DNA from: Syntrophaceae bacterium
GTDB lineage: Bacteria > Desulfobacterota > Syntrophia > Syntrophales > UBA5619
Assembly (NCBI GenBank): GCA_003141195.1
Contig: PLLC01000106.1
Location: 2,745 to 66,744, forward strand
Length of the DNA stretch: 64,000 nucleotides
Direction of reading: 5' to 3'
The notes under the pieces were generated by a model. It was not told the DNA's origin. It saw nothing but the letters and a program-made list of their open reading frames with translations, and made no database searches. The position numbers and the translations under genes are program-made. Below, piece after piece: positions 34,288-42,850 of the stretch; position 1 is the stretch's first letter; each line of letters starts with the position of its first letter.

Positions 34288-34316
34288 TTGACAACCTCCC
34301 TTCCTGCCATTATATT
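34288..34316 (+). promoter_or_regulatory. Sigma-70-type promoter candidate for the ars operon, with CTGAT repeats just downstream
   Basis: TTGACA (34288-34293), 17 nt, TATATT (34311-34316). CTGAT at 34326-30 and 34335-39, and the inverted ATCAG at 34351-55, overlap the expected transcription start region. Confidence 0.6.
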
Positions 34317-34381: not shown

Positions 34382-34666
34382 ATGGAGAAAGACAATTCAA
34401 AAGCGTCCTGCTGCGAGGGCGGGAGTGCCGGCATGAGCTGCTGCCGCGTCGAGGCGCTTCTCGGCGTCGACGAGCGGGGCCAGATGGTGCTTCCCAAGGA
34501 ATTGAGGGACAGGGCAAACATCAAGGCGGGCGACAAACTGGCGATTGTCAGTTGGGAAAAGGACGGGGAGATCTGCTGCCTTGCCCTGATCAAAGCCGAC
34601 AATCTCGCCGAGCGGGTGAGGGAGTTTCTCGGTCCGGTCATGCGAGAGGGTGGTTCGGGTTCATAG
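34382..34666 (+). CDS. AbrB/MazE/SpoVT-type DNA-binding protein with three vicinal Cys pairs
   Basis: 94 aa. SpoVT-AbrB core VDERGQMVLPKELRDRANIKAGDKLAIV. CC pairs at SCCEGG, SCCRVE, ICCLAL. GGAG 9 nt upstream of the ATG. Confidence 0.75.
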   Translation: MEKDNSKASCCEGGSAGMSCCRVEALLGVDERGQMVLPKELRDRANIKAGDKLAIVSWEKDGEICCLALIKADNLAERVREFLGPVMREGGSGS

Positions 34667-34744: not shown

Positions 34745-35590
34745 ATGGAACAGGGAGAAATCAGGAAGGCCGTCCGGGACGGTTATGGACAGATCGCGAA
34801 GAATTCAGGAAGTTGTTGCCTTCCCGGGGCATCGTGCGACGGCGGTGTCAGTTCGGTGGAAAAAATCAGCCAGGGGATCGGTTACAGCCCGGAGGAGATG
34901 CAGGCCGTTCCGGAAGGGGCGAACCTCGGCCTGGGCTGCGGAAATCCGGTGGCGCTGGCGTCACTGAAAGAGGGGGAAACGGTGGTGGATCTGGGGTCCG
35001 GCGCCGGTTTCGATGCTTTCCTCGCCGCCCGGGCCGTGGGGAAAAGCGGGCGGGTGATCGGCGTGGATATGACGCCCGAGATGCTCGACAAGGCGCGGGG
35101 AAACGCCCGGAAGGGCGACTACGGAAACGTGGAATTCCGTCTGGGGGAAATCGAGAACCTCCCCGTCGCCAACCGGACTGCGGATATCATTATCTCGAAT
35201 TGCGTCATTAACCTCTCCCCCGACAAGGAGCGGGTCTTCAGGGAGGCGTTCCGGGTTCTCAAGCCTGGCGGCAGACTGATGGTCTCGGATATCGTTCTAT
35301 TGAACCGGCTGTCCAATGCGCTGAAAGAATCCATCGAGGCCTATGTCGGCTGCGTTGCCGGCGCTGTGATGAAAGAGGACTACCTTCAGGCGATCCGGGG
35401 GGCCGGTTTCGAGGAAGTGGGGATCATCGACGAAACAACCTTTCCCGTGAAGGAGCTTATCAGTCATCCCGCGGTACAGGAGCACTTCGGGCAGGTGGAT
35501 CAGATGGAGTCGCAGATCGAAGAAATCAGCTCCTCCATCGCCAGCATCAAGGTTTATGCCGTGAAGCCGGCGGCGAACAAAGGGCATTGA
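34745..35590 (+). CDS. arsM: Arsenite S-adenosylmethionine methyltransferase
   Basis: VRDGYGQIAK...SCC..., GLGCGNP, SAM site VVDLGSGAGFD, RVIGVDMTPEML, IISNCVINLSPDK, LKPGGRLMVSD, YVGCVAGA (conserved As-binding Cys positions). Confidence 0.9.
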   Translation: MEQGEIRKAVRDGYGQIAKNSGSCCLPGASCDGGVSSVEKISQGIGYSPEEMQAVPEGANLGLGCGNPVALASLKEGETVVDLGSGAGFDAFLAARAVGKSGRVIGVDMTPEMLDKARGNARKGDYGNVEFRLGEIENLPVANRTADIIISNCVINLSPDKERVFREAFRVLKPGGRLMVSDIVLLNRLSNALKESIEAYVGCVAGAVMKEDYLQAIRGAGFEEVGIIDETTFPVKELISHPAVQEHFGQVDQMESQIEEISSSIASIKVYAVKPAANKGH

Positions 35591-35709
35591 AAAATGCTCC
35601 TTATCTTTTTCTCCGCGCGTTCCCGCCGGGCGCCCCCGGATTTTACGTTACCCGGGCGGCTGTCCGGCGAGGACGAGACGGAAAACCTGACGTGAGGAGG
35701 TGTTTTATC

Positions 35710-35955
35710 ATGTCGAAAAAGATCATCATCTACGGGACAGATACCTGACCTTTCGCGAAACAGGCCAAGTCGGCCTATGGAGAGCGGGCGGTCTTTGTCA
35801 ATGTCGATGCGGACCCGGAGAAAAGGAAGGAGATGCTCGCCCTGACCGGGGGAAGGGAGCAGGTGCCCGTGATCGTGGACGGCGGGAAGGTCACGATCGG
35901 ATTCCTGGGAGAGGTCTCCCTGCGCGGCGCGGTTCCGCTGTTCGGCGGCACCTGA
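35710..35955 (+). CDS. Glutaredoxin-like (YruB/NrdH-like) protein with in-frame UGA at the redox-active position: candidate selenoprotein
   Basis: Not in the ORF track because an in-frame TGA splits it. ATG at 35710 (GGAGG at 35696-35700). Reads MSKKIIIYGTDT[TGA 35746-48]PFAKQAKSAYGERAVFVNVDADPEKRKEMLALTGGREQVPVIVDGGKVTIGFLGEV...*. The TGA sits where Grx-like proteins carry the first Cys of CPxC. Hairpin AGGCC-aaguc-GGCCU at 35762-35776. Confidence 0.6.
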
Positions 35956-36177
35956 CCGGTCTGAAGGCCTCCCGTGGGGAGGCCACGATTCACAAACTGA
36001 AAAATTGACGAGACGGCGAAACGATCCATCCCGATCCAACGCCCTCCAGCGCCGGAATGTGTGAAAGGAGGCTCGACCGATTTGGCCATTGGCGGGATAT
36101 TGCTAAAAACAGTTGCCCGGCAGCAAAATGAGTGAACAAACCAGGTTCGACAATACAATCCCAAGGAGGTCTGTATT

Positions 36178-36606
36178 ATGAAGATGGTTCCCAAGTTTAC
36201 CCTCGACGATGCCCGCGTCATGATGGACGCGGCGGAGGCAAAGGCGCGTGAGATCGGTGTTGACATGGATATCGCCATCACCGATGACGGCGGTTCCCTG
36301 CTGATGTTTCACCGCATGGACAACGCGCGCATCACCAGTATCGATATCGCGATCAGCAAGGCCTTTACGGCCGCCGCCGCACGCAAGTCCACGCGCGCGT
36401 ACGGGGAGACAAGCATGCCGGGCGGGCCCTCATACGGCATTCATGTCAGCAACCAGGGACGATTCATGATCGTCGCGGGCGGACTCCCCGTTTTCTACGA
36501 CGGTCATATCATCGGCGGCATCGGATGCAGCTCGGGCCATGCCGATCAGGATGAGGTGATCGCCCGGGCGGGGGTCGACGCCCTCATGGAGAGTCTGAAG
36601 AGGTGA
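36178..36606 (+). CDS. GlcG/HbpS-family heme-binding protein (DUF336)
   Basis: 142 aa. LDDARVMMDAAEAKAREIGVDMDIAITDDGGSLLMFHRMD...IAISKAFTAA...GGLPVFYDGHIIGGIGCSSG. Confidence 0.8.
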   Translation: MKMVPKFTLDDARVMMDAAEAKAREIGVDMDIAITDDGGSLLMFHRMDNARITSIDIAISKAFTAAAARKSTRAYGETSMPGGPSYGIHVSNQGRFMIVAGGLPVFYDGHIIGGIGCSSGHADQDEVIARAGVDALMESLKR

Positions 36607-36653: not shown

Positions 36654-37256
36654 ATGGCAAAGAGAAAATGCATCGAAAAACAATCCTGGAAGCCCGGGAA
36701 CGTTCTGTCTCCGGCGCCGCCGGTTTTGGTGAGTTGCGGCGGGACGCAGGGGTGGAAACCAAACCTGATCACCATTGCGTGGGCAGGAAACGTTTGCAGC
36801 GATCCCCCCATGCTGTCGATCTCCGTCCGTCCCGAGCGGTATTCCCATGAAATCATCCGGACCACGCGTGAATTTGTGGTGAATGTGCCCTCGTTCAGGC
36901 AGGCGAAGGCGGTGGACTGGTGCGGTGTGGTTTCCGGGCGGAGCGAGGACAAATTTGCCGGTGCGGGGCTGACGCCTGCCCCGGCCCTGAAAGTTTATCC
37001 GCCGATCGTTCTGGAGTGCCCGCTCAACATCGAATGTCGGGTGCAGCAATCGCTGGAACTGGGCTCGCATACGATGTTCGTGGCGGAGGTGGTCGCCGTG
37101 CAGGTCTCTGCGGACCTGGTAGACGGAAAGGGGCGGCTCCGCCTGGAAAAATGTGGCCTGCTGGCGTTCGCCCACGGGCAGTATTTCGTACTGGGGCGCT
37201 GCATCGGACGCTTTGGTTTCTCCGTCCGGAAGCGCAGCCGCGAGGTCCGTCGCTGA
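36654..37256 (+). CDS. Flavin reductase-like FMN-binding domain protein
   Basis: 200 aa. PAPPVLVSCGG...NLITIAWAGNVCSDPPMLSISVRPERYSHEIIRTTREFVVNV...MFVAEVVAVQV. Confidence 0.8.
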   Translation: MAKRKCIEKQSWKPGNVLSPAPPVLVSCGGTQGWKPNLITIAWAGNVCSDPPMLSISVRPERYSHEIIRTTREFVVNVPSFRQAKAVDWCGVVSGRSEDKFAGAGLTPAPALKVYPPIVLECPLNIECRVQQSLELGSHTMFVAEVVAVQVSADLVDGKGRLRLEKCGLLAFAHGQYFVLGRCIGRFGFSVRKRSREVRR

Positions 37257-37419: not shown

Positions 37420-38648
37420 TCAGGCACTGTTCCCCCGCCGGTCGTACCTCCTGAACAGCAATGCGAAGAAGACAATCATGGCGATCGTGACCCAGCCGCA
37501 GAACTGCATGAGGAATGCGCCGCCCCATCGCTCGATCAGCACGCTTCCCAGAATACCCCCCAGGGCGGAGGCCAAAGACATCCGTGCCACATTCGTGATG
37601 CTCAGGTAGGTGGCGCGCATGGCCGGATGGGCCCGCCGGTCCACGAAGTCGATGATTCCGAGTTGAGAGAGCCCGAAGCCGGGTCCCTGCAGGAGCGCCG
37701 CGGCCCACTTCCAGACGAACGGCGTTTCCAGGGTGAAGAAAGAGAAAAGAAGCAGGCGGACACCGCTCAATAACAGTCCGGATACGATCAGCCACCGGTT
37801 TCCGAACCGGTCGATCAGTTCCCGGGAAAACATCATCACGGGGATTTCGAAGATCGTCCAGGTGCCCAGGATGAATCCGATTTCCAGCGGCGTCTTCAGG
37901 ACGTCGTCAAAGAAGTAGCCGGTATAGGTGAAAGAGGAGGTGGTCACCACCCCGTGGAGAAAAATGAAGAGGAGAAACCACCGGAAAAGGATGTCTTTTT
38001 TCAGGTGATTCCAGGGGATGATGATCGGGGCAGCCGCCGGCTTGGCCTCGATACCGGACCAGGAGGCAAATCCCAGAACGGCGAACGCCAGGGCGGCGCA
38101 ATAAAAGATCAGGGGGTCGTGACGGAAAAAGAAGAGCAAGACTCCCATCAGGATCGAGGAAACACTCCAGCCGTAGGTGCCCACAACCGGTAGGCGCCGT
38201 AGAACTCCCTCCGGGAGTGTCTGTTGAGAAACAGCAGGGTTTCCGCGTCGAGCATGGGCATGATCGGATAGAAGGAGCAGTTGAGAAAGAATAGCAGCGC
38301 GAATATATAGATGAATTTGCCGTTCGCCGTCCAGCCGTGCGCGAAATCCTCGCCGGCCAATCCGATCAGTGCCGTAAACAGGGCGACGCCGAAACAGAAA
38401 AGGGTGATCAGGTGCTTCCCCGAATGGAATTTGTCCGCCAGAATACCCGCGGGGAGGTTTGCGACAAGGCTGACCAGCGGCATCACGAAGAAGATGAGGC
38501 CGATCAGGCCGATGGCGGGGGTTCCGTCCGCACTGACAATGACGTGTTTGTAGAAGATGCCGAAATACGGCGAGCTGATCCCCAAGCCGACGAAGAATAG
38601 AAAGAAGAGCGTTTTCAGATAGACCGACTGTTTCCTGACGGGATCCAT
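37420..38648 (-). pseudogene. MFS transporter interrupted by a 1-nt frameshift in a G/C run (or sequencing error)
   Basis: The N-terminal 166 aa (ORF 38148..38648) end ...REFYGAYRLW. The C-terminal ~250 aa continue in another frame (tail of ORF 37420..39162) from GTYGWSVSSILMG.... The joined sequence YGAYRLWGTYGWSV is a coherent MFS motif. The shift maps to CCC at 38180-38182 (GGG on the coding strand). Confidence 0.75.
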
Positions 38649-38657
38649 AGGAGGTGC

Positions 38658-39500
38658 TCAGCGCGTCAGGAGGACCGGAATTGGGCTCTTTCGGATGACC
38701 GAGGAGGTCGTCGAGCCGACCATGAGTTCCCGGAAGCGGTTGTGTCCGTAAGCCCCCATGACGAGGAGCTCCACTGCCCCCTCTCGGATGAACTTGAGGA
38801 GTTCCTTGTCCTCCTTGCCCGGGAGGATGAGGGTGGCGCTGTCGATCTTGAGGGACGCCAGGAATTCCTCCGCCTTCTTCGAGGTCTTCTCCCCCAGGGA
38901 CGGATCGGTCGTGATGATGACGACGGACAGCGGCCAGGCGGCCCGCTCCGACAGTTCGGCGGCGAGCTTCAGGGCCTTGTGGGCCGGGGCGCTCCCGTCG
39001 TAGGCGACAGCCATGCTTTCGATCTCCCGGAAATGTTCCGGGGTAACGAGGACCGGTTTTCCGGAGCGCCGGACGACGGACTGGGCCGTGGAACCGAGGA
39101 TGGCGCCTCCGTTGATGTGGAAGTGTTCGCCCCGCTGGGCGAGGAGGATCCAGTCGCAGCACTTCCGCCCCTCCTCGATGATCGTCTCATCGATCACCCC
39201 CGTGACCTTCATCGTTTCGGGATGCACCCCCGCCGCTTCGCACATCCCGCGGAAATCCTGGAGGATCGCGTCGGCCTTGGCGTCGAGGCCGCTTTCAATG
39301 GCCGGAAGGAACTCCTGATACGGGGGGAGTCCGACGGAGCCGGAGATATCCGTGAAGACGGGACCCCGGATGAGGCGGATGTCCACGACGTGAAGCCCGG
39401 TCAGTTGCGCGTCCAATTTCCGGGCGATATAGATGCCGTAGGCGATGGCCGTTTTCCCGTAATCGGAGCCATCGGTGGGAATGAGGATGTTTTGAATCAT
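38658..39500 (-). CDS. Tandem universal stress protein (2 x UspA domains)
   Basis: 280 aa. ILIPTDGSDYGKTA...GGAILGSTAQSVVRRSGKPVLV, then a second domain VAYDGSAPAHKAL...LLVMGAYGHNRFRELMVGSTTSSVIRKSPIPVLL. Confidence 0.9.
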   Translation of the reverse strand: MIQNILIPTDGSDYGKTAIAYGIYIARKLDAQLTGLHVVDIRLIRGPVFTDISGSVGLPPYQEFLPAIESGLDAKADAILQDFRGMCEAAGVHPETMKVTGVIDETIIEEGRKCCDWILLAQRGEHFHINGGAILGSTAQSVVRRSGKPVLVTPEHFREIESMAVAYDGSAPAHKALKLAAELSERAAWPLSVVIITTDPSLGEKTSKKAEEFLASLKIDSATLILPGKEDKELLKFIREGAVELLVMGAYGHNRFRELMVGSTTSSVIRKSPIPVLLTR

Positions 39501-40852: not shown

Positions 40853-42850
40853 TCAGTATGCCCAGTATGGACCGTTACCTAAGCTGGACGCCGAGCCCTC
40901 GTACCCGATAACGACATTTCGTCCGAAGAAGAAGGGAAGGCCCCAGTCGAAATTTCCCGGGAAAGCACCCCCGATTTCGGCAAACACCCTGATGAAGGAG
41001 TTCGTAGTGAGATCTACCAGATTGCCGATATGAAATGGAACCAAACCGCTCGGTGCGCCGGAGGCGCCGGTATTGGTGGCCGAAAGGCTTACGGTGGTTG
41101 CGGGGCAGTACCAGCCCGTATTGGGAGCGGCGCAGTTGGGAAGTTGGCTTGCAGAAGGTGGGGTGAAGAATAGCCCGCTTGAACCGCTGTCGATGAAACT
41201 GTTGTAGGTGCGGCCGCTGAATTGCGTCGTAAATTCACCCGTCGTTGCGCTGGCGGAATAGGCCGTCACCGAAGTAGGCACGTTGTTCGACTGGGTGTCG
41301 ATCCCGAATATGAGACTGCCGTTGACCGCGGATGTCCCGCCGAGGGGAACGCTCGGGAGCTGCACGATCACGCCGTTGTTGTCCCGGGGGAGGAGCGCCG
41401 CAGGGTTCTGGACTTGGCTGGAAAGGGGGACGGTTGTCCCGCTGCATCTCGCCCCGTTGCAGGCGTAATACTGCCCATTGTTCGCACTGCTGGCACAGGT
41501 CGTTCCGCAGTCGTCCGTGAAGAGACCCACCCCCAGGATGCCGTTGAATCCGGCGGCTGCCGGAGTTGGATCCGCAGTGGAGCATCCGGCGGAACGGGTG
41601 CCAAACGTGGAATCGACAACTTGTATCGAGACCTGAACCGCGGGCTCATTGGCCAGGATGATGCTTGCCGTCTGAACAGGGCCCCATATCGACGAGCCGT
41701 CTCCGAACTGGACGCACTCGGCAATCGATCCGGAAGCGCCGGCTACCTGCGAAAGCGATACGGCCAACGCCTGTTTAAAGATCCGCAGCCCGTAACTTCC
41801 CGTATCGAGCAGGATGTCGTTGATTGTTTGGCAGGTTGAGGTCCCGGGGGTGCAAAGGGTCACGCTGACGCAGGGTTTGTTGAAATAGGAGTCCGCCGAA
41901 CAGAGCGAGCCGTTGACGGTGATGGGGATGACATTATTCGCTGCACCGCTGGTCACCCTCAGGGTGGTTGACGCCGAGACGCCACCGACCGCCGCGGTGA
42001 TCGTCGTTGTGCCGTCGGCAACCGAGGTGGCGCGCCCGTTCGTACCGGCCGCATTGCTGATGGTGGCGACCGAGGTGACCGACGACGTCCAAGTCGCCGC
42101 TATCGTCAGGTCCTGCGTGCTGCTGTTTGAATAAGTACCAGTGGCGATAAACTGCTGGGTTGTTCCCAGAGCGATGGTCCGATTCGTCGGGCTGATGGCA
42201 AGGGAGAGGAGTGCCGGCGGGGTCACCGTCAGGGTGGTCAATCCCGAGACGCCTCCGACCGTCGCGGTGATCGTCGTTGTGCCGGTGGCTACCGAGGTGG
42301 CGAGCCCCCTGGAACCGGCTGCATTGCTGATGGTGGCTACCGCGGCAGCCGACGATGTCCAGTTCGCCGATGTCGTCAGGACCTGCGTGCTGCTGTCCGA
42401 ATAGGTGCCCGTGGTGGTAAACTGCAGGGTTGTCCCCAGAGCGATGCTCGGATTCGTCGGGCTAATTGCGAGGGACACGAGTGTCGCCGTAGTCACCGTC
42501 AGCGTGGTTGACGCCGAGACGCCACCGACCGCGGCGGTGATCGTCGTTATACCGGCGGCAACCGCCGTGGCGCTCCCGTTGGAGCCGGCCGCATTGCTGA
42601 TGGTGGCGACCGCGGTGTCTGATGAAGTCCAGGTCGCCGATGTCGTTACGTCCTGCGTACTGTTGTCCGAATACGTTCCCGTGGCGGTAAACTGCTGAAC
42701 GGCCCCTTTGGAAATGGAAGGATTGATCGGTGACAGAGCGAGTGAAACAAGCGTCTTAGTTGCTGGACTGCTGCCTCCGCCCTCCCCGCCGCCGCAACCG
42801 GTCATCAGTGCGAGGATCAGAGCACAAATTAGTATATTACTTGATTTCAT
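40853..42850 (-). CDS. Lipoprotein with three Big_2 (bacterial Ig-like) repeats and a C-terminal DUF3443-like domain carrying DTGS/DSGS motifs
   Basis: Lipobox ALMTGC. Three 88-aa repeats (LVSLAISPTNPSIALGTT.QF..TGTYSD.STQ..T..A.WTSS...VATISNAAG..G.AT.VA.GTTTITA.VGGVS..TTL.VT). C-terminal domain with ILLDTGSYGLRIF and NSFIDSGSSGLFF. Confidence 0.85.
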   Translation of the reverse strand: MKSSNILICALILALMTGCGGGEGGGSSPATKTLVSLALSPINPSISKGAVQQFTATGTYSDNSTQDVTTSATWTSSDTAVATISNAAGSNGSATAVAAGITTITAAVGGVSASTTLTVTTATLVSLAISPTNPSIALGTTLQFTTTGTYSDSSTQVLTTSANWTSSAAAVATISNAAGSRGLATSVATGTTTITATVGGVSGLTTLTVTPPALLSLAISPTNRTIALGTTQQFIATGTYSNSSTQDLTIAATWTSSVTSVATISNAAGTNGRATSVADGTTTITAAVGGVSASTTLRVTSGAANNVIPITVNGSLCSADSYFNKPCVSVTLCTPGTSTCQTINDILLDTGSYGLRIFKQALAVSLSQVAGASGSIAECVQFGDGSSIWGPVQTASIILANEPAVQVSIQVVDSTFGTRSAGCSTADPTPAAAGFNGILGVGLFTDDCGTTCASSANNGQYYACNGARCSGTTVPLSSQVQNPAALLPRDNNGVIVQLPSVPLGGTSAVNGSLIFGIDTQSNNVPTSVTAYSASATTGEFTTQFSGRTYNSFIDSGSSGLFFTPPSASQLPNCAAPNTGWYCPATTVSLSATNTGASGAPSGLVPFHIGNLVDLTTNSFIRVFAEIGGAFPGNFDWGLPFFFGRNVVIGYEGSASSLGNGPYWAY
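41968..42760 (-). repeat. Three tandem 264-bp coding repeats (Big_2 domains) inside the lipoprotein gene
   Basis: Protein repeats of 88 aa. The period also shows in antisense ORFs starting 42141 and 42405 (264 bp apart) with near-identical translations. Confidence 0.85.

Follow-up and report, generated by a model that had tools for sequence, protein, structure and literature searches.

A hidden glutaredoxin-like gene with two in-frame UGA codons behind arsM in a Syntrophaceae contig: a probable double selenoprotein of UXX-star family 1

We present here an analysis of a small hidden gene in a 64,000-nucleotide stretch of DNA from a Syntrophaceae bacterium (GenBank assembly GCA_003141195.1, contig PLLC01000106.1, forward strand), which is called the window in the following. 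The gene encodes a glutaredoxin-like protein, and it contains two in-frame TGA codons that we read as selenocysteine (Sec, U). The + strand from 35710 to 35955 starts with an ATG at 35710 and translates as MSKKIIIYGTDT, a first stop, PFAKQAKSAYGERAVFVNVDADPEKRKEMLALTGGREQVPVIVDGGKVTIGFLGEVSLRGAVPLFGGT and a second stop, the latter being preceded by ...PLFGGT. The first stop is the in-frame TGA at 35746-35748, located at the position of the first Cys of a CxxC motif; the second, at 35953-35955, is followed by CCG GTC and then by a TGA stop at 35962-35964. The full coding sequence would accordingly span 35710..35964 (+), and it is assigned to a UXX-star family-1 glutaredoxin-like double selenoprotein on the basis of its score against the family model NF041114, of an architecture common to the related loci L035-L040, and of the ratio of non-synonymous to synonymous polymorphism (pN/pS). 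Its product would be a protein of 84 amino acids (aa), MSKKIIIYGTDT-U13-PFA...PLFGGT-U82-PV-stop, with a Cys count of zero. A Shine-Dalgarno sequence GAGGAGG, read from the sequence, is located at 35694..35700 (+), 9 nt ahead of the ATG, and the G+C content per codon position is 0.60/0.45/0.79 in the + frame. The overlapping open reading frames (ORFs) on the minus strand are without this codon-position pattern, and a minus-strand gene is rejected. These results bear out what a preliminary description of the locus had noticed, namely a reading frame with an in-frame TGA at 35746-48 that the ORF track misses, a strong Shine-Dalgarno sequence upstream, and a coding-type G+C content at third codon positions (GC3). 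The end that it gave to the frame, at 35955 after 81 codons, has to be revised, as the TGA there is read as the second Sec codon and the true stop is placed at 35962-64. The 331-nt gene region is identical across four independent metagenome assemblies, which elsewhere differ from the window by 0-30 single-nucleotide polymorphisms over 16-21 kb, and a sequencing error is ruled out by this identity. On the whole, the sequence indicates that the hidden gene is real and that it almost certainly encodes a small glutaredoxin-like selenoprotein; the gene model together with the family assignment is highly probable.

In the mechanical ORF list and in every public gene call, only a 40-aa ORF (35833-35955) is given at this place. 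It is labelled 'hypothetical protein', its exact sequence is present on 36 contigs, and its cluster at 90% identity has 25 members. Its annotation by every pipeline and its wide occurrence would fit a gene of which only this part is expressed, as a small independent protein. We find this hardly credible: what the 40-aa ORF encodes is a glutaredoxin fold's C-terminal half, which cannot fold alone, codons 1-41 are conserved and under purifying selection too, and the strong ribosome-binding site precedes the ATG at 35710, not that at 35833. As for the relatives with Cys at position 13, which are 81 aa long, every gene call terminates at the second Sec codon. Because the calls give either the 40-aa ORF or these 81-aa forms cut at the second Sec codon, the long-tail subclade to which the window gene belongs is systematically mis-annotated in public data.

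The first Sec codon, U13 (35746..35748, +; U-P-F-A, first CxxC-equivalent position), is identified from Sec/Cys pairs across homologues. A protein search returns 223 relatives with identity of at most 77% and nearly all of 81 aa. These called relatives have C-P-F-C at positions 13-16 and end in ...FGGT, where the second TGA follows, and the 38 called protein homologues that were aligned all have Cys13. Searches at the DNA level, translated with TGA as U, give 29 genome loci and 80 metagenome loci. Among the unique homologous sequences, codon 13 is TGA in 61 and TGY (Cys) in 24. The Cys homologues aligned at the UGA, for which the preliminary description had proposed to look, are thus found; it had also considered that homologues might align only downstream of the TGA, and the alignment in fact spans both sides of it.

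The homologous loci are shown to form three groups. The first consists of six loci with 80-90% identity and the architecture of the window gene, T-U-P-F-A...GG[T/A]-U-P-V-TGA. The second is a large Syntrophales-type set with U-P-F-C or C-P-F-C and a spacing of 69 codons. The third is the classical short family, U-P-[Y/H]-T...G-G-T-U-G-V-stop, hosted by Acidobacteriota, NC10, Rokubacteria, Planctomycetota and delta-proteobacterial metagenome-assembled genomes (MAGs). Counted over family loci, with rows not dereplicated, the motifs are UPYT (24), UPFC (22), CPFC (14), UPFA (7) and CPYT (5). Within the U-P-F-A clade, frame, start codon, the two TGAs and the final stop are kept in seven distinct sequences. 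Codons 1-12 have a pN/pS of 0.31 and codons 14-81 one of 0.20, which therefore points to protein-level selection on both sides of UGA-13. As a separate observation in the classical family, the chromosome of 'bacterium isolate bin582' (CP070698.1, a 2.03-Mb MAG) carries two copies (L009 and L021), both ending in ...GKVTIGYGGT-U-G-V-stop, one with TAA and the other with TGA as the stop.

The first UGA is followed by a hairpin within the coding sequence. This candidate selenocysteine insertion sequence, SECIS-1 (35762..35776, +), covers codons Q18-Y23 and has a 5-bp stem AGGCC/GGCCU with the loop AAGUC. The stem starts 13 nt after UGA-13 and the apical loop 18 nt after it; the hairpin had been noticed before with an offset of 14 nt, so that its presence is confirmed and its offset corrected. 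The 5-bp stem in fixed register is intact in 51 of 61 U forms versus 8 of 24 Cys forms (Fisher p=1.4e-5). At the pair formed by two wobble positions, the U forms have U-A in 33, C-G in 23, U-G in 4 and a mismatch in 1, and this pair is paired in 11 of the 24 Cys forms. With RNAalifold, 31 unique U13 sequences yield the SECIS-1 helix only, with 155 of 155 cells paired and covariation between UA and CG. Since SECIS-1 is intact mainly in the U forms, the helix appears to be maintained where it is needed. The six closest relatives have the loop AGGUC; an Arg-to-Lys change in the window (AGG to AAG) gives AAGUC, with GU retained. A lower stem that extends SECIS-1 in the window alone (z = -1.7) was also tried and rejected, being not conserved in the alignment. 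The published criteria for bacterial SECIS elements (bSECIS) are a loop of 3-9 nt, an upper stem of 4-16 bp, a G in the first two loop positions, a UGA-loop spacing of 16-37 nt and a minimum free energy of <= -7.5 kcal/mol (PMC13188914). Measured against them, the earlier suggestion of a bacterial SECIS agrees in spacing and in the lengths of stem (5 bp) and loop (5 nt), and covariation also speaks for it, but the loop-G rule and the energy do not. In a strict perfect-stem bSECIS test, 5% of the U13 sites pass, which equals the background rate, the mini-hairpin being too weak for this rule; SECIS-1 was therefore judged by the fixed-register comparison of U with Cys forms and by RNAalifold. Overall, the TGA/Cys pairs and the hairpin kept in TGA forms support the core of the preliminary call, a selenoprotein with a glutaredoxin fold and Sec at the first CxxC-equivalent position.

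These data also bear on a pseudogene, i.e., a C-P-F-C gene which has undergone a TGC-to-TGA nonsense mutation and gives no functional product. Such a history could be read from the Cys that the closest called proteins (at most 77% identical) carry at the codon, from the single base change between TGY and TGA, from the departure of the window's SECIS-1 loop from the bSECIS rule, and from a window with no visible Sec machinery. However, TGA-13 occurs in 61 unique sequences from several phyla and is the majority state of the family, the seven U-P-F-A sequences retain the frame with pN/pS of 0.2-0.3 on both sides, the hairpin is kept by compensatory change specifically in the TGA forms, and the locus is identical in four assemblies, all of which make a pseudogene very improbable. 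Reassignment of UGA is ruled out as well, because 11 of the 21 Pfam-supported genes in the window end normally with TGA, which is the commonest stop among them. A scan of the window for other in-frame TGAs flanked by coding-like GC3 gives three hits, and all of them fit ordinary stops.

The second Sec codon, U82 (35953..35955, +), opens a C-terminal U-X-X-stop motif and is identified from the conservation of the tail in the family; the true stop at 35962..35964 (+) is TGA in all seven UPFA-clade sequences. P-V-TGA follows the second TGA in 7 of 7 U-P-F-A sequences. In the whole family, U-X-X-stop is found at 53 of 86 unique sites, against a chance expectation of about 4%, and the codon at +2 past the second UGA is GTN in 76 of the 86, with all four third bases occurring. 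The codons after the second UGA behave as coding, and the tail is predicted to be translated. In one relative (L076) there is a Cys at the C-terminal site (GGT-C-SV...), with U retained at position 13. Another (L085) ends in U-G-L-S-C-stop. The two relatives thus provide Sec/Cys pairs, for the second site and for a possible extra tail residue. A second hairpin, SECIS-2 (35966..35984, +), begins one base past the stop and has a perfect, GC-rich stem of 8 bp, GGCCUCCC/GGGAGGCC, with the loop GUG. Its energy is -15.7 kcal/mol (z = -2.7) and its spacing from the second UGA is 18 nt, and it agrees with the bSECIS criteria in every point; it has no U tract and is absent from the terminator predictions. 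Hairpins comparable to it at 16-21 nt spacing are present at 56% of the unique C-terminal UGA sites of the family and at 5% of background TGAs. The hairpin at the SECIS-2 offset is family-wide, while the stem sequences are unrelated between clades.

It might be argued instead that the protein has a single Sec, with U13 a true Sec, TGA 35953 a real stop after 81 aa, and 35966-84 a terminator or an mRNA-stabilising stem. Gene callers and NCBI do end the 81-aa Cys-13 relatives there, and some long-tail relatives are without the U-X-X-stop frame and have a weak hairpin (L034, -5.3 kcal/mol). We regard this as improbable in view of the P-V-TGA shared by all seven U-P-F-A sequences, of the stop exactly three codons on at the 53 sites, and of the Val at codon +2 with its free third base, which is a coding signature. 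The Cys of L076 at the second site argues in the same direction, as does the hairpin, which lacks a U tract, is not called a terminator, has a loop beginning with GU, and stands at the same 18-nt spacing as SECIS-1 within the bSECIS limits. Besides, the curated family is itself defined by the second Sec.

In the family assignment, hidden Markov models were scored with the U-to-C substituted sequence unless X is stated. NF041114, 'UXX-star selenoprotein family 1', is the best-scoring family, with 82.3 bits for the protein with its tail and 80.5 bits for residues 1-81 (cut-off 72), other families scoring lower or under their own cut-offs. With X at both Sec positions the score is 73.2 bits, which is still above the cut-off. 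The classical members score 98-124 bits and the long-tail clade 82-85 bits. The Pfam model Glutaredoxin (PF00462) gives 38.1 bits with a cut-off of 22.9. Of the earlier label 'YruB/NrdH-like', the glutaredoxin fold stands, and the small size and the beta-alpha-beta-alpha-beta-beta topology are shared too, but membership does not: YruB (TIGR02196) scores 30.4 bits against a cut-off of 88.55 and NrdH (TIGR02194) 17.5 bits against 85.75, and the protein has neither a CxxC dithiol nor a selenium-free active site. The classical dithiol glutaredoxins (TIGR02181 GRX_bact, 33.0 bits, cut-off 90) are rejected likewise, the motif being U-P-F-A and the Cys count zero.

The window protein resembles UXX-star family 1 in passing the cut-off of the model, in a truncated glutaredoxin fold, in Sec at the first CxxC-equivalent position with a non-Cys fourth residue, in a further Sec close to the C-terminus, three residues away from it (G-G-T-U-x-V-stop), in a SECIS hairpin after each UGA, and in its arsenic-resistance neighbours. 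It differs in its length of 84 aa, while the family has about 70, in a 14-residue insertion (EVSLRGAVPLF...) that lengthens the arm of the second Sec, in U-P-F-A where the family has U-P-Y-T, and in the tail U-P-V where the family has U-G-V. The name UXX-star refers to Sec-X-X-stop at the C-terminus, and in the selenoproteome literature NF041114 is called 'distant Grx-like protein 1'. Several UXX-star families were probably first described by Haft & Tolstoy, 2025 (mSystems). For 'distant Grx-like protein 1' the GOS paper is cited, the accessible part of which has only a generic 'Grx-like UxxC' row. A 2026 review (PMC13188914) has NF041114 in its table as a two-Sec family with the motif UxxT, and hints at a metal or metalloid role; the fourth residue of the window motif is Ala, where UxxT has Thr. 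We count the family as known because of the NCBIfam models and this table: curated databases and a recent review already cover it, together with its pair of Sec residues and a probable role that involves a metal or metalloid. NCBI already applies the UXX-star family-1 name to relatives in the long-tail subclade. The window copy, from its predicted product, is a long-armed, Cys-free (U-P-F-A) new member of an already curated family.

The nearest sister forms are of the Syntrophales type (C/U-P-F-C...GGT-U-x-x) and have 62-77% identity to the window protein. They share the gap of 69 codons between the special codons and the long arm, and where a sister has U, also the position of SECIS-1. Unlike the window protein, they retain a resolving Cys16 (C-P-F-C or U-P-F-C), and they are located in arsR-arsP-trx-acr3 operons while the window gene is behind arsM. 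What follows the second UGA varies as well. In this U/C-P-F-C long-tail clade (L041-L086, e.g. L042, L046, L051 and L057) the tail is often not U-X-X-stop; it may be U-P-V-K-stop, or eight codons (UPVKxxPR-TGA) with the TGA inside the SECIS stem-loop. In L041-L086 either the length of the tail is free, or translation simply ends at the second UGA in part of these loci. JGI calls the sisters 'glutaredoxin 3'; the named NCBI records have this name too, or else 'glutaredoxin' or 'UXX-star (seleno)protein family 1'.

The fold was modelled with AlphaFold2 on a Cys homologue of 77% identity (P0002, without the last three residues) and 38 aligned relatives, not on the window protein. The core of P0002 is beta1-alpha1-beta2-alpha2-beta3-beta4, with a predicted local distance difference test (pLDDT) of 76-87, and the last glutaredoxin helix is absent. 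Residues 67-81 of P0002 are disordered (pLDDT < 50). Because the tail of the modelled homologue is disordered, U82 is predicted to be at the end of a flexible arm, which is 14 residues longer than that of the classical family. The best matches in PDB are glutaredoxins, NrdH and cGrx proteins of Clostridium oremlandii, glutaredoxins and NrdH being the top Foldseek matches. Clostridium oremlandii Grx1 (UxxC; Cys forms cGrx1/cGrx2, PDB 7c10/7c12, 4tr0) shares the glutaredoxin fold and Sec at the nucleophilic first position, and is among the best PDB matches in sequence and structure, although the sequence E-values are only ~1e-3. It has only one Sec, possesses a resolving Cys and the complete C-terminal helix, and depends on glutathione, whereas the window protein has zero Cys, no last helix and an added Sec-bearing tail. 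A functional analogy is found in mammalian thioredoxin reductase, where the tail -G-C-U-G carries Sec on a flexible C-terminal arm, the SECIS is beyond the stop, and the arm would carry redox equivalents into a buried centre and out of it. A Sec near the end of a flexible arm is common to both, but thioredoxin reductase is unrelated and its SECIS is eukaryotic, and the partner of its Sec is the adjacent Cys (selenenylsulfide), while the only possible partner of U82 in the window protein is the other Sec.

We then consider the neighbourhood of the gene. The local order is grpE, dnaK, PLD-like, surE, MazE-like, arsM, the selenoprotein gene, HbpS-like and flavin reductase. The arsM gene (34745..35590, +) encodes an ArsM-type As(III) S-adenosylmethionine (SAM) methyltransferase of 281 aa in the Cys form and ends with a TGA stop. 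It is matched by NCBIfam NF008823 with 351.9 bits (cut-off 263) and by Pfam Methyltransf_31, and its translation has cysteines at CC24-25, C31, C65, C153 and C203. This ArsM also gives strong sub-threshold matches to the NCBIfam 'exception' models ArsM/AhpD UU, MTase/UXPK-star and ArsM/DUF2284 UU, and these models of ArsM multi-selenoproteins therefore suggest that selenium use around ArsM recurs in other lineages. The spacer of 119 nt between arsM and the selenoprotein gene contains two weak terminator-like hairpins, one at 35582-99 and the other, CCGGGCGCCCCCGG followed by AUUUU, at 35626-39, which may attenuate read-through from arsM. Upstream of arsM is a MazE/AbrB/SpoVT-type small DNA-binding protein of 94 aa (34382..34666, +; PF04014, from the precomputed annotation of an identical contig). 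By tblastn (59-98% identity), a MazE-like gene is found beside arsM and members of the glutaredoxin family at L035, L036, L088/89, L095/98 and L107. The MazE-like gene travels with arsM across several unrelated lineages, which suggests that arsM is regulated by an AbrB-type protein and not by ArsR. The MazE-like ORF is preceded by a sigma-70-like promoter candidate (TTGACA-17-TATATT, 11/12; 34288..34316, +) identified by its consensus match only; two matches to the consensus are found versus 1.0 expected in shuffles, and it is a possible start of the cassette transcript.

Downstream of the selenoprotein gene are an HbpS/GlcG-like protein of 142 aa (36178..36606, +; Pfam PF03928) and a flavin reductase-like protein of 200 aa (36654..37256, +; Pfam PF01613), both co-directional and of uncertain membership in the unit. 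The HbpS-like gene is beside the glutaredoxin-like gene only in near-identical contigs and L036, and the flavin reductase is conserved downstream only in L036; the latter is a possible electron source. ArsR, Acr3, ArsB and ArsC were not found within the annotated +/-10 kb of the gene. The earlier placement 'in the ars operon' is therefore right in that the gene is directly downstream of arsM, while a classical ars operon is rejected, only arsM being present locally, with the MazE-like gene and surE upstream.

The arsenic link itself is supported by conserved neighbourhoods across the family. Among 91 family loci examined by tblastn of neighbours, many of them short contigs, Acr3 is present at 33, ArsR at 23, two Thioredoxin_3 proteins at 21-22, ArsP at 13 and ArsM at 12; one Cys-13 relative has the order arsR-arsP-trx-trx-acr3-grx. 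The Ala16 forms (UPFA/CPFA; L035-L037, L040, L088/L089) are located behind MazE-like and ArsM, and the Cys16 forms (UPFC/CPFC; L041-L074) in arsR/arsP/Thioredoxin_3/acr3 clusters, in a small sample uncorrected for phylogeny.

Based on these results, the following mechanism is proposed. SelB would recode both UGAs as Sec, the apical loop of each hairpin being 18 nt downstream of its own UGA. U13 would be the nucleophilic position of the CxxC-equivalent motif, which, as U-P-F-A, would leave it without a resolving Cys. U82 would be carried on the flexible, disordered arm (...EVSLRGAVPLFGGT-U-P-V), and the arm would bring it onto U13 to form a diselenide/diselenol couple. Because the protein is without Cys and without a resolving residue, U13 and U82 would be its only possible redox or ligand centre. 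The couple would serve a co-transcribed ArsM, either by re-reducing the disulfides formed in its catalytic cycle, or by holding As(III) or its methylated form MAs(III) as a diselenolate chelate and passing it on. The disulfide cascade of ArsM depends on a reductant of the thioredoxin type (PMC6138428), and because ArsM oxidises its own Cys pairs in each methylation cycle, a selenol redoxin would be a natural candidate for this reductant. As a whole, a two-Sec UXX-star family-1 protein, decoded by hairpins and with a U13-U82 centre serving ArsM, is the best explanation and a probable one. Taken separately, work with ArsM through the U13-U82 centre has a little less than an even chance.

If the protein does have this role, we give roughly equal chances to a reductase and to a chaperone. 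In the form of a true rival, the protein would have a diselenolate site of high affinity and be a chaperone or buffer for As(III)/MAs(III), or for a different soft metalloid, feeding ArsM or Acr3, and not a disulfide reductase. The absence of Cys and of any resolving residue in U-x-x-A is suited to such a function, and the family adjoins most often Acr3 (33 loci) and ArsR, not just ArsM. In addition, ArsM-like enzymes with a C-terminal U-X-P-K-stop (NCBIfam NF047649) suggest a Sec tail at an arsenic site, and the review hints at such a role for the family (PMC13188914). Against this, the glutaredoxin fold and the position of U13 as a nucleophile are typical of redox enzymes, many relatives retain a full U/C-P-F-C dithiol-type motif, and ArsM, as is known, depends on a reductant for its disulfides. 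We therefore hold the chaperone for a serious possibility that is nevertheless rather less probable than its opposite; the two roles are not mutually exclusive.

A more specific proposal is that the window protein and the six other U-P-F-A proteins are natural Cys-free 'diselenol' redoxins with an intramolecular U13-U82 diselenide, working as a low-potential Se-Se/2 SeH couple or a diselenolate As(III) chelate dedicated to ArsM methylation in anaerobic Syntrophales. This is tentative, and we think it unlikely on balance; intramolecular protein diselenides are very rare in biology. If it is true, the swap from Cys16 to Ala16, coinciding with the move from the acr3/arsP to the arsM cassette, would mark a functional specialisation.

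Several points weigh against the two-Sec, ArsM-serving explanation. For the hairpin, the consensus energy of SECIS-1 is -6.8 kcal/mol, which is weaker than the -7.5 threshold, and the window loop AAGUC is without a G at either of its two opening positions, the first G being at position 3. For the family, the profile of NF041114 is matched at positions 1-66 of 70 only, where classical members match 1-70, and there is the 14-residue insertion ahead of the U-X-X tail; insertion and partial coverage mark the long-tail subclade. For the tail, part of the long-tail clade runs 4-16 codons past the second UGA and not 2, which makes the U-X-X-stop rule a loose one there, and in some relatives, e.g. L034, translation could simply end at this UGA. 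The comparative statistics throughout ignore phylogenetic relatedness. As for decoding, selA, selB, selD and tRNA-Sec were not found in the window by Pfam on about 30 genes and the precomputed annotation; Rfam and tRNA scans of the whole window give no SECIS family and no tRNA-Sec, and sel genes were not found in the examined portions of the 86.6-kb source contig. Sec machinery of the host is assumed here. The DnaK encoded in the window falls into one cluster at 90% identity with MAG proteins of Syntrophales and Syntrophobacterales, which points to a Syntrophales-like host, and Syntrophales are a selenoprotein-rich group. Lastly, we infer the diselenide and the ArsM partnership from anatomy and gene neighbourhood only, and Sec insertion itself from the sequence.

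Two other features of the window may be mentioned. The region of a major facilitator superfamily (MFS) transporter (37420-39162, minus strand) is a single ORF of 580 aa in the mechanical listing, and two adjoining or overlapping genes (254 or 242 aa, plus 166 aa) in identical public contigs; a frameshift or an artefact of the start codon could account for the double call, or the gene may be a split one. Furthermore, two direct repeats of 206 bp (41952-42157 and 42492-42697), 85% identical and 540 bp apart, are located inside a Big_2/DUF3443 gene (40853-42850, minus strand) and presumably represent tandem duplications of Ig-like domains.

On the whole, current knowledge is not overturned by this finding. 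The locus shows cleanly how a double-Sec gene is truncated by every pipeline, and a corrected annotation would add a selenoprotein to many Syntrophales-type MAGs. Its Cys-free U-P-F-A form would offer a minimal system, with two Sec and zero Cys, for a protein diselenide or diselenolate as a working centre. With its consistent place beside Acr3, ArsR, ArsP and ArsM, the family ties the use of selenium to how arsenic is detoxified and methylated in anoxic sediments.

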